DNA of 20,000 bases. Origin: Paramecium tetraurelia (lineage: Eukaryota). A program made the translations under genes and the position numbers. The stretch spans positions 242,488-262,487 of the forward strand of contig CT868023.1 in NCBI GenBank assembly GCA_000165425.1. Reading direction: 5' to 3'. Shown in pieces: positions 15,688 to 18,600 of this stretch; the stretch's first letter is position 1; every line of letters begins with the position of its first letter. Below the pieces are notes generated by a model, which was not told where the DNA came from, did not search any database, and saw only the letters and a list, made by a program, of their open reading frames with translations.

Positions 15688-18600
15688 ATGTTAGGCTTAT
15701 TGAATAAAGTAACATCTACATTACGTGGAGGTGGTTGTGGATCTGCTAAAATAATTCCCTTCACTGAAGTGGAATTAAAGTCCGATAAATATGAAATAGA
15801 CAATTTAATTACTAGATTTGATTCTTTTGTCTAAATTATATATACTAAAGCAACTGTTGCTGCTAATTAATCAGAAGCTTAAGAGATAATGATAGCAATA
15901 TAATGGTTTATTTTTTAAGAGGAAAACATTTACAAACTCATCAAGAATAAATAATAGGTCAAAAAAACATACAACTTAATAATAGATGGAATTTAAAAAT
16001 TATTGAAAAGTTGTTTCATCTACATCAGAACTGATTCATTCAAATGTTTATTTATCTTAAGAATAACAGCATCTCTCTCTAAAGTGATATTTAGCTTCCA
16101 TATGATAAATGAGTTAAGGTTTATGGGTTTGGGGTTGGGGTTGGGGTTGGGTTTGGGATTGGGTTTGGGGTTTGGGTTTGGGGTTGGGTTTGGGTTTTGG
16201 GTTTGGGGTTTGGGTTTGGGTTAGGAATCGGTTTGGGGNNNNNNNNNNNNNNNNNNNNNNNNNNNNNNNNNNNNNNNNNNNNNNNNNNNNNNNNNNNNNN
16301 NNNNNNNNNNNNNNNNNNNNNNNNNNNNNNNNNNNNNNNNNNNNNNNNNNNNNNNNNNNNNNNNNNNNNNNNNNNNNNNNNNNNNNNNAACTTAAACTTC
16401 TTTTCAGATGGCCCCAAATAATGGTAAAGAAAGGGCTCTTATTTTACAAGGTTGTTTACAGGGTATCATTAACTCAATAATTGATATGAAACCAAGTGTT
16501 GATTTGTTTAAATCATTGTATGACGGAGCCGTCTGGCTATATAATGATTATGCAGCTTAGAAAAATAGATAATAATATGAAGATTATTTTTAAATAGATA
16601 TGTTGTAATGGGAGATTATAAATAATTTGAAAAATGGCAGCTAGAATTTGGAAGAAATACTCTCACGAATTGAGAAAATACATGAAAATCTAGTGAAAAA
16701 TGCAAGTAATTGGAAAAATCATTTTTTGTGGATTTAAATGATTGGAAAAATCATAACTTATCATCCTCTCATAACAAAAAAAAAATTAAATCAGCTAACT
16801 AGCCCTTTCAATTTTGAAACCAAATCAAGGTAAATATGGAAGGAATATCTGAACAAAGGATTTCTAATGTAATTGAATTATAGCAATGACTAAGCTGTAG
16901 TTTTACTTAATTAATTTAAAAATAAAGAATTAACTTAAATTGATAAATTAATACTAGAAGACACTTTCATAGAATGGGAAAACCTCATGTTGCTTAAAGA
17001 TTTCTTAATGAATGAAAAAACTGATAATAACTATTTCACATTTGGTTCGTATTTAAAATTAAAGTTAGGAAGTATAGAACCCTAAGAAAATATATATAAA
17101 TAGGCAGTTTGGCAATATTTAACAATTTCTTGATTTCATCCATTTCTAATAAATTGCTCGCTTTAATTCAGGAAAATTATGATTACTTGGTAGTCATAGT
17201 TAAAAATTATAAAAATTTTATCAAATAAAATAAATATTTTAATGACACAATAGAATAAGCCAAATCTAATTCATAATTAAAAAAAATAAATCTCAACTTC
17301 AAAGGATATTTCCTAAACACTCAAAAAATCATTAAAATTATTAGGCTTTGTTTTAGGAAATAAAATTTTTAGCTAGAATAACTTGAATAGAAAAAGGGTA
17401 ATGAATTCAAAATAGTATAAAAACTGAAATATATTATGAGACTGTTAGAATAAATATTATCATAAGCAATTTAAGATACTAAAGAGAATAGAACTGAACC
17501 TGATGAAAGCAGAGTGATTTAGTAATAGATAGAGTTGATTTAGAAGAAATTATAAAATTTAAATCTAACAGAAAAATAATTTTCCTTCATGAATAAGTTG
17601 AATTAGAAGCTATTTGCCTTACCCAATTATGCTCTTAACTAGAGGAGTTTTTTGAAAGAAGCTCAATGCATGTTAAAACTTATTGAACAAACTGAAAAAT
17701 AAGTCTCAGAGCTAGAAATTTTTTTAATTCAAAAGGATAACTTAATTCAATACTTTAAATTTTAATTGAATAACCTGAATACTTATTATGAACACCAGGT
17801 CTATAAACTCCAAAATTACTTTACTTAATTAAATTTAAGTTTGAAGACATTTCTAATTTTACAATATGAAATAGAGTCAGTTTCATAACCTGAAAAATTA
17901 AAAGAAATTTAATTAAAATATTCTTAAAAAGTTTCATTTTAATGTCTACTCGAATAAAGATTGAACATGTTAAAGCTAAGTTTGAAATTAATTGTTTTCA
18001 AGGAATGCTTTTAAAATATATTAACAATACCATCAAAAGAATTTAAAAAATTACAATATGATATCAATTTAGATGAGTTTCTGATTGATGTAGTTTAGAA
18101 TTATCCAAAACGCATAATGTGCTGTGACAGTTCAATAAAAAGTTAGGCCATTGCAGAATTAAGTAATTTATAAATTACTGAACAAGACTATCAAAATAAT
18201 TTAATTATATTTAAAGGTAGTTTAGAATATCTTATATTGTAATTAACTTTAGAAGAACAAAAGATTGACTTAGAAAGAATAGATTTAGAATAAATTGAAA
18301 AGGAATTTGGAGAATTATTTATAGAAGAAATCAATCCCCCTACTATTACTGAAGTAATAATGAAAATAGTAAAAGATTTTTCAATAGACATTTCATTAAA
18401 CATTATGGAAAATAAATCTCTCAATCAAAATTAATTGAAAATAGAGAAAGAAAAGTATGAGATATTGCTGTAATAATTAAGAAAAATTAACTACTAAGAA
18501 AATTGTGAGGAGGTAGAATAAATGAAGTTACTAATCAGTCAGATTTAAATCGTTTTTCTATTATTGAAAGCTTCCATTAACTAAGACTTAGAAATTTTTA

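Follow-up and report, generated by a model that had tools for sequence, protein, structure and literature searches.

Ubiquitin and NEDD8 end in the tail LRGG, and dually acylated proteins classically start with Gly-Cys, the glycine being the free N-terminus. We describe a gene of Paramecium tetraurelia whose predicted product joins the two. The gene lies in a 20,000-nucleotide stretch of contig CT868023.1 (positions 242,488–262,487 of the forward strand, assembly GCA_000165425.1), which we call the window and number from its first base. Its protein, a relative of NLR-like NTPases, begins at position 15688 with the peptide MLGLLNKVTST-LRGGGCGSAK, and the six residues LRGGGC recur with little change throughout a Paramecium gene family. 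We tentatively read them as a signal for N-terminal processing, or maturation, coupled to a lipid anchor, and regard this as a possible rather than a probable explanation.

Each half of this reading has described counterparts, cited here by PubMed Central number. Effectors of the AvrPphB family cut themselves and thereby expose embedded acylation sites at Gly63/Cys64, and BID is myristoylated, post-translationally, once caspase-8 has cleaved it (PMC2708883). The tag as we read it resembles both, with an N-terminal piece that hides an acylation site until a protease frees the glycine. In AvrPphB-family proteins an intrinsic papain-like domain makes the cut, and the sequence at the site differs from LRGG; in the Paramecium relatives Pfam recognizes no protease domain, and the putative site copies the ubiquitin tail. 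Among plant NLRs, RPS5 needs acylation of Gly2/Cys4 for its localization to the plasma membrane (PMC3801107). The Paramecium proteins are, like RPS5 and RPS2, of STAND/NLR type with Gly...Cys at the extreme N-terminus, lipidation being a prediction in their case, and the spacing of Gly2 and Cys4 in RPS5 is that of GGC in the motif if the cut falls after LRG. In RPS5, however, the glycine stands directly behind the initiator methionine, without leader or protease step; RPS5 combines NB-ARC with LRR, whereas the Paramecium family combines NACHT with WD40, and the N-terminal domains are unrelated.

The fungal and animal STAND proteins of NACHT-WD40 type (HET-E/NWD and TEP1-like) are alike in layout, with NACHT followed by WD40 and a long, variable N-terminal effector region. 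They differ in that the N-terminal region of the Paramecium family, 1,150–1,300 amino acids long, matches only Paramecium among named proteins. We know of no LRGGGC tag in the HET-E/NWD or TEP1-like families, in which we made no search for it.

The precursors of ubiquitin, NEDD8 and ISG15 and the viral LXGG sites share with the tag an LRGG followed by a residue other than proline. The tag differs in lacking a preceding beta-grasp fold, its leader being 2–13 amino acids long and predicted to be disordered. Linear oligopeptides are cut after LXGG by a papain-like protease of deubiquitinase type, with an efficiency that depends strongly on the upstream sequence, and the Lb protease of FMDV, the virus behind foot-and-mouth disease, cuts between LR and GG (PMC10933793). 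NLRP1 and CARD8, finally, are NLR-type sensors with a protease-cleavable N-terminal region, described with FIIND autoprocessing, degradation of the N-terminal fragment and fast-evolving sites (PMC7857732, PMC10249858); the Paramecium site is invariant.

A conserved N-terminal core in a family of NACHT proteins

The window DNA is AT-rich (GC 22%–32%), and its frames are open only with TAA and TAG read as glutamine. Read in this way, positions 15688–15750 of the forward strand encode MLGLLNKVTSTLRGGGCGSAK, and the peptide and its coordinates, with L12–K21 at 15721–15750, are as originally predicted. The ATG at 15688 is the earliest in-frame ATG past a TGA at 15634–15636. Residues 1–146 of a relative, P0003, align without gaps to 15688–16125 (tblastn, 77% identity), so the first 146 codons hold no intron. 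A true start downstream of the motif, which would have counted against the original prediction, was not found, P0003 being aligned from its first residue. The peptide falls into three parts: the start codon and a variable leader M1–T11 (15688–15720), whose columns are poorly conserved in the family; the invariant core L12-R13-G14-G15-G16-C17, with codons tta cgt gga ggt ggt tgt (15721–15738); and a semi-conserved tail G18-S19-A20-K21 (15739–15750), for which the column counts give the family pattern G-[ST]-x-[KR].

All named relatives of the window proteins are from Paramecium. A protein search returned 27 Paramecium proteins (E values of 6e-64 to 9e-21), two of them with NACHT, and a profile search of 1.84 billion representatives returned 97 at E ≤ 0.001, every named one again from this genus. 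The window's own protein pieces match no Pfam family at or above its cut-off. In the long relatives, Pfam recognizes only NACHT, AAA_22, pentapeptide and WD40-type domains: NACHT (PF05729, cut-off 26.7 bits) in P0022 (41.7 bits), P0066 (47.3), P0076 (48.5), P0027 (30.7) and P0117 (29.4), and WD40 propellers in P0066, P0067, P0116 and P0117. The description of the window protein as an NLR-like NTPase therefore holds by homology, the gene being colinear with the NACHT protein P0022, but it draws no support from Pfam on the window pieces, and the NTPase domain itself lies beyond the window. Judged by these likenesses, the gene falls in a family of STAND NTPases that is specific to Paramecium and whose proteins are very large, with a probable layout of a short N-terminal tag, ∼1,150–1,300 amino acids of helical repeats and NACHT, followed in full-length models by WD40 propellers. 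Many annotated relatives are short pieces of 267–900 amino acids, the best models reaching 2,000–2,700, and several lie on small contigs of 8–9 kb; it seems that the family either resists assembly and annotation or includes many pseudogenes.

Proteins were chosen for scoring conservation by a separate block further along the chain (..QWF), with at least 50 amino acids ahead of it, so that the choice did not depend on the motif; 39 of 119 family proteins qualified. Exact LRGGGC was present in 30 of the 39 and a variant with one or two residues changed in four. The five proteins without the motif comprise one with ELGGGC, one with IRGCGCC and three that look like frameshifted or out-of-frame gene models. 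Among 38 distinct 29-mers spanning the site, the core residues were L in 37, R in 36, G in 38, G in 37, G in 38 and C in 36. Invariance falls immediately past the cysteine: The following glycine is present in 28 sequences, S/T in 27 and K/R in 26. Expressed as information, the six core columns each carry at least 3.97 bits, compared with 0.9–2.6 bits for the 13 columns before them and 0.9–3.0 bits for the 12 after. The expectation that the motif would be kept while the leader varies is borne out by these values.

Other samplings of the family gave a similar picture. In a 24-sequence alignment (A1), L12, G14, G15 and G16 account for four of only eight invariant columns, and conservation is 90% or higher at R13, C17 and G18. 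In the profile-search set, 22 of the 97 proteins extend to profile position 20 or below; among these, exact LRGGGC stands in 17, four have one or two changes (P0026, P0021, P0053 and P0091) and one (P0056) is disrupted. A near-length search added three proteins, of which two carry the motif and the third (P0120) has an out-of-frame start.

Six named species have the motif. Three paralogues in Paramecium bursaria carry it, as TLRGGGCG (P0067), MTLRGGGC (P0117) and SLRGGGVSC (P0116), and the window protein keeps TLRGGGC identical against an overall identity of only 24% over 131 amino acids with P0117 and 27% over 135 amino acids with P0067. Recurrence of LRGGGCG in Paramecium NACHT/WD40 paralogues, which the original prediction had put forward, was thus found in the relatives. 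Taken at the level of protein sequence, these counts show strong purifying selection on exactly the six residues.

It is scarcely credible that the motif arises by chance, from faulty gene models or from selection on the DNA and not on the protein. The poor assembly of the window copy would suit an artefact, as would at least two annotated relatives, P0120 and P0025, in which motif codons appear, from the protein sequences, to be out of frame. Chance is contradicted by the numbers: The family comprises 60,074 residues, in which 4.7e-5 occurrences of LRGGGC would be expected from family composition, while LRGG occurs 39 times, never past residue 160. The presence of the motif in six species also speaks against this explanation.

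As annotated, P0120 has the N-terminus MEVVVEL and P0025 contains the stretch ..KWRRLL.., both of which look like an out-of-frame reading of the codons for the motif's Gly/Cys; from the proteins alone, this points to mis-modelled or degenerate copies. A metagenome scan for related DNA, intended for codon comparison, gave 594 pattern matches, none of which was confirmed by tblastn.

Proposed processing and lipid attachment, and competing explanations

In the mechanism we propose, a protease working in trans would sever the chain within LR/G/G/G, the most economical candidate being a cysteine protease of ubiquitin-tail type, specific for LRGG and cutting after Gly-Gly. The new N-terminal glycine would be myristoylated post-translationally, the neighboring cysteine would be S-acylated, and the lipids would tether the NLR-like protein to a membrane. 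We infer each of these elements: the cleavage, its site and enzyme, both lipidations and the membrane localization. What favors the scheme is its coverage of the conserved pattern. With LRGG as P4–P1 of a protease site, the next glycine for myristate and the cysteine for palmitate, all six residues would have a role, and no rival appears as economical. As Pfam finds no protease domain in the relatives, a cut could occur only in trans.

Neither a particular leader sequence nor a particular leader length seems to be required. Its length ahead of LRGG ranges from two residues (Met-Thr in P0117, as annotated) to 13 (P0067), and in P0066 a methionine stands four residues ahead of GGG. The distance from the nearest methionine to the first glycine is 13 in most members from the aurelia complex and 4, 6, 9, 11, 15 or more elsewhere. 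With a leader as short as two residues, recognition would rest on the tetrapeptide and not on a folded or helical leader. The 15-residue pro-peptide of the original prediction is accordingly the usual length up to Gly-Gly but not a fixed one, the range being six (P0117) to 17 amino acids (P0067), and longer in some annotated models.

Several more familiar types of N-terminus were considered and set aside. That no ubiquitin fold precedes the motif was confirmed: Only 11 residues stand ahead of LRGG in the window, with no beta-grasp fold, and neither the window piece nor any of eight relatives annotated with long leaders gave a ubiquitin match in Pfam, which led us to reject an ancestral ubiquitin fusion. 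A mitochondrial presequence or amphipathic-helix anchor is unlikely given the two-residue leader of P0117 and the acidic residues in several leaders. Self-cleavage at Gly-Cys of Hint/Hedgehog or Ntn type was rejected, the part past the cysteine being disordered and then all-helical in prediction and no such Pfam domain being found. Double-glycine leader peptides (the bacteriocin type, processed by C39 peptidases) have leaders of ∼15 amino acids or more with a conserved hydrophobic pattern for recognition; here the usual length to Gly-Gly is 15 amino acids, but P0117 has only Met-Thr before LRGG and the leader columns are poorly conserved. Nor do the proteins have the Met-Gly start of co-translational N-myristoylation: The window protein begins M-L-G-L, and no motif-bearing relative starts with Met-Gly.

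An AlphaFold2 (AF2) model of P0003 places residues 1–31 at a predicted local distance difference test score (pLDDT) of 27–31, unstructured, with helices from residue 32; a segment disordered in this way would be accessible to a protease. Structure searches with VIA-align matched ARM/HEAT-type solenoids at Z scores of 8.6–13.8, a range common for helical repeats, and the ESM Atlas returned TPR/ARM-like rows below its own bar. These solenoid matches are generic, and the function of the N-terminal domain cannot be read from them.

The model bears on the idea that the motif is a structural or protein-binding element of the helical domain, for example a glycine hinge docking on the solenoid, with neither processing nor lipid. 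Strong conservation of other blocks in the N-terminal domain (..EIMIAIQWF.. and ..SLSKVIFSFH..) is what such an element would share. We nonetheless consider it unlikely, as the motif lies in the predicted disordered segment, ∼15 residues ahead of the first modeled helix, the residues between motif and domain vary, and a hinge would not require a fixed leucine, arginine and cysteine.

For the lipid half of the proposal, we used the PROSITE-type myristoylation rule, G-{EDRKHPFYW}-x(2)-[STAGCN]-{P}. The window's GCGSAK passes, as the original prediction of myristoylation from Gly16 would have it, but in the family only 21 of 38 sequences fit in that register. A cut after LRG would give 30 fits and a cut after LR 32, so the rule does not fix the register of the cut. 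K/R stands at position 6 or 7 in 27 of the 38.

Several observations weigh against processing followed by lipid attachment. With Gly16 first, the register of a deubiquitinase-type cut, the rule fails in 17 of 38 sequences, of which 14 carry I, V, F or L as their fifth residue, including the largest aurelia subgroups (GCGSIK and GCGSFR); S/T occupies position 5 in 18 of 38 after a cut behind LRGG versus 27 of 38 after one behind LRG. Most cellular deubiquitinases need the ubiquitin fold, and none precedes the motif. Several annotated relatives have the motif 37–140 amino acids from their annotated start, although these upstream extensions may be gene-model artefacts. Disorder at the N-terminus is weakly established, the AF2 model being of low quality as a whole (mean pLDDT 52.5). 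Our literature searches for LRGGGC, or for post-translational myristoylation with LRGG, found nothing relevant.

Read coverage near the start codon lends the proposal slight support. A contig of run X17 covers 15696–16051 and nothing in 15477–15695, whereas a DNA run covers both stretches, and contigs of two further runs cover parts of 15748–16112. The pattern hints weakly at a transcript that includes the motif and begins near the ATG. X17 and the other two are taken as RNA by guess only, which counts against this support for our proposal; their contigs cannot show a transcript start, and stretches that they leave uncovered carry no weight.

The strongest competitor is an uncleaved motif: The leader would be kept, the cysteine would be S-acylated or engaged in other thiol chemistry, and LRGGG would be a flexible recognition element or spacer for an acyltransferase or partner. 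We judge this doubtful but worth serious attention. The cysteine is kept in 36 of 38 sequences, most of which have K/R at a distance of two to four residues behind it, the segment is predicted to be disordered, and it would be irrelevant that only 21 of 38 satisfy the myristoylation rule for a cut after LRGG. S-acylation sites, however, are normally without a strict consensus. An invariant L-R-G-G-G at 24%–27% overall identity exceeds what a spacer needs, and the identity with the ubiquitin/NEDD8 tail would go unexplained. A precedent for S-acylation by itself comes from RPS2, reported with a predicted palmitoylation signal alone (PMC3801107).

If the leader is kept until an intruder removes it, the tag could instead be a conditional tripwire, cut by an LRGG-specific protease of an intracellular bacterium, virus or symbiont to leave an exposed end, a lipid anchor or a degron, that activates the protein. 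The protein is NLR-like, with NACHT and WD40 in its relatives; pathogen proteases are sensed via N-terminal cleavage of NLRP1 and CARD8 (PMC7857732, PMC10249858); and cuts by viral proteases are described behind LRGG as well as between LR and GG (PMC10933793). Known tripwire regions evolve fast, as described for CARD8, whereas LRGGGC is invariant, and FIIND (ZU5-UPA) is not among the Pfam matches listed for seven long relatives (the best 25 families in the case of P0067 and P0116). We therefore think a tripwire rather unlikely. A more specific form, in which LRGG would be bait for deubiquitinase-like effectors of bacteria inside the cell, of viruses or of Paramecium symbionts and the cut would unmask the Gly-Cys lipid anchor, moving the NACHT-WD40 protein to the membrane and switching it on, has in our estimate a slender chance.

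A cut might also serve turnover, exposing the N-terminal glycine or cysteine as an N-degron and so setting the level of a potentially dangerous NLR-like protein. Naked N-terminal glycine is a degron in human cells, tied to protease products and failed myristoylation (PMC7458402), and three glycines followed by a cysteine would provide either end. The adaptors of the Gly-degron pathway are described for animals, though, and the conserved [ST] and K/R past the cysteine would be left without a role; we rate turnover as highly unlikely. Processing with a lipid anchor thus remains our preferred, if tentative, account of the six residues.

Course of the gene and assembly of the window copy

By tblastn, one long gene on the forward strand is colinear with relatives P0009 and P0022 across 15688–19967. 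Past the tag, the first part of the N-terminal helical domain (residues 22–145) occupies 15751–16123, as placed by the P0003 alignment and the helical model. Three substitutions relative to the window in this part (15962, 15963 and 15967) are common to contigs of runs X1, X17 and X20. Directly after codon 146 comes a telomere-type repeat of mixed GGGGTT/GGGTTT (16124–16238), inside the gene, which abuts a scaffold gap of 150 N (16239–16388). The gap stands for ∼37 codons of the gene, residues 147–183 of P0003 having no tblastn match in the window.

A G-rich strand running 5′ to 3′ rightward marks the right end of a macronuclear chromosome, and the repeat in the window is so oriented. Either some macronuclear molecules are fragmented and capped within the gene, or the scaffold has taken in a telomere-bearing read. 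Contigs of X1, an independent DNA run, supply 99 additional letters ahead of 16389, and the part of them shown keeps the frame and resembles the paralogues.

The gene resumes at 16390 in the same frame as 15688 and continues to 17110, matching P0003 from residue 184 onward and P0022 residues 178–411. Its frame changes near 17111, 17140 and ∼19978. The first two changes are due to single extra bases at 17111 and 17140 (17111–17140), both absent from the X1 contig over 16971–17296; without them, 16390–17296 is a single frame. As X1 lacks both bases, these frameshifts are assembly errors or strain differences and do not prove a pseudogene. The long helical middle region follows in window frame 3 (17142–19978), including an open frame of 855 codons starting at 17436, and matches P0009 residues 423–1252 and P0022 residues 421–1306.

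P0022, a NACHT protein of 1992 amino acids, is colinear with the window gene up to its residue 1306, at window base 19967. An additional frame change falls at ∼19976–19981, in a stretch without read cover just ahead of the NACHT strand TVLLIH. This first strand of the NACHT domain (TVLLIH..., 19981–20000), in yet another frame, is cut by the window end; in P0022 the same strand stands directly ahead of the NACHT match (residues 1312–1477) and of Walker A. Because TVLLIH makes up the final letters of the window, the NTPase domain of the gene lies beyond its end, and any WD40 propellers would lie past it too.

The surroundings are similarly fragmented. Three gaps of exactly 150 N each occur within 3 kb (13376–13525, 14495–14644 and 16239–16388), and small contigs strung together make up the stretch that separates the NACHT-family gene from a large Cys-rich gene. 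The Cys-rich gene is an uninterrupted forward-strand open reading frame of 3272 codons (2463–12281) that encodes a very Cys-rich protein with furin-like repeats, its Pfam Furin-like_2 score of 25.7 bits being just below the cut-off of 28.

Implications for the family and for protist NLR-like proteins

Embedded acylation signals and acylated NLRs are already known. What would be new here is the junction, which reproduces the ubiquitin tail and sets apart a protist-specific family of NACHT-WD40 proteins. The tag would join a ubiquitin-tail cleavage site to a Gly-Cys dual-acylation site, a pairing that we did not find described in the literature searched, and this single six-residue tag is fixed throughout a gene family and over the full depth of the genus, with P. 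bursaria at one end and the aurelia complex at the other, in a group of organisms whose NLR-like proteins are almost unstudied.

If our reading of the tag is true, a ubiquitin-tail tetrapeptide without the ubiquitin fold can be a natural pro-peptide junction, post-translational myristoylation would be used constitutively outside animals and bacterial effectors, and membrane tethering of NLR-type proteins would have arisen independently in ciliates. Should LRGG instead prove to be bait for deubiquitinase-like effectors, the family would represent an innate immune switch of a protist, set off by a protease and coupled to lipidation.

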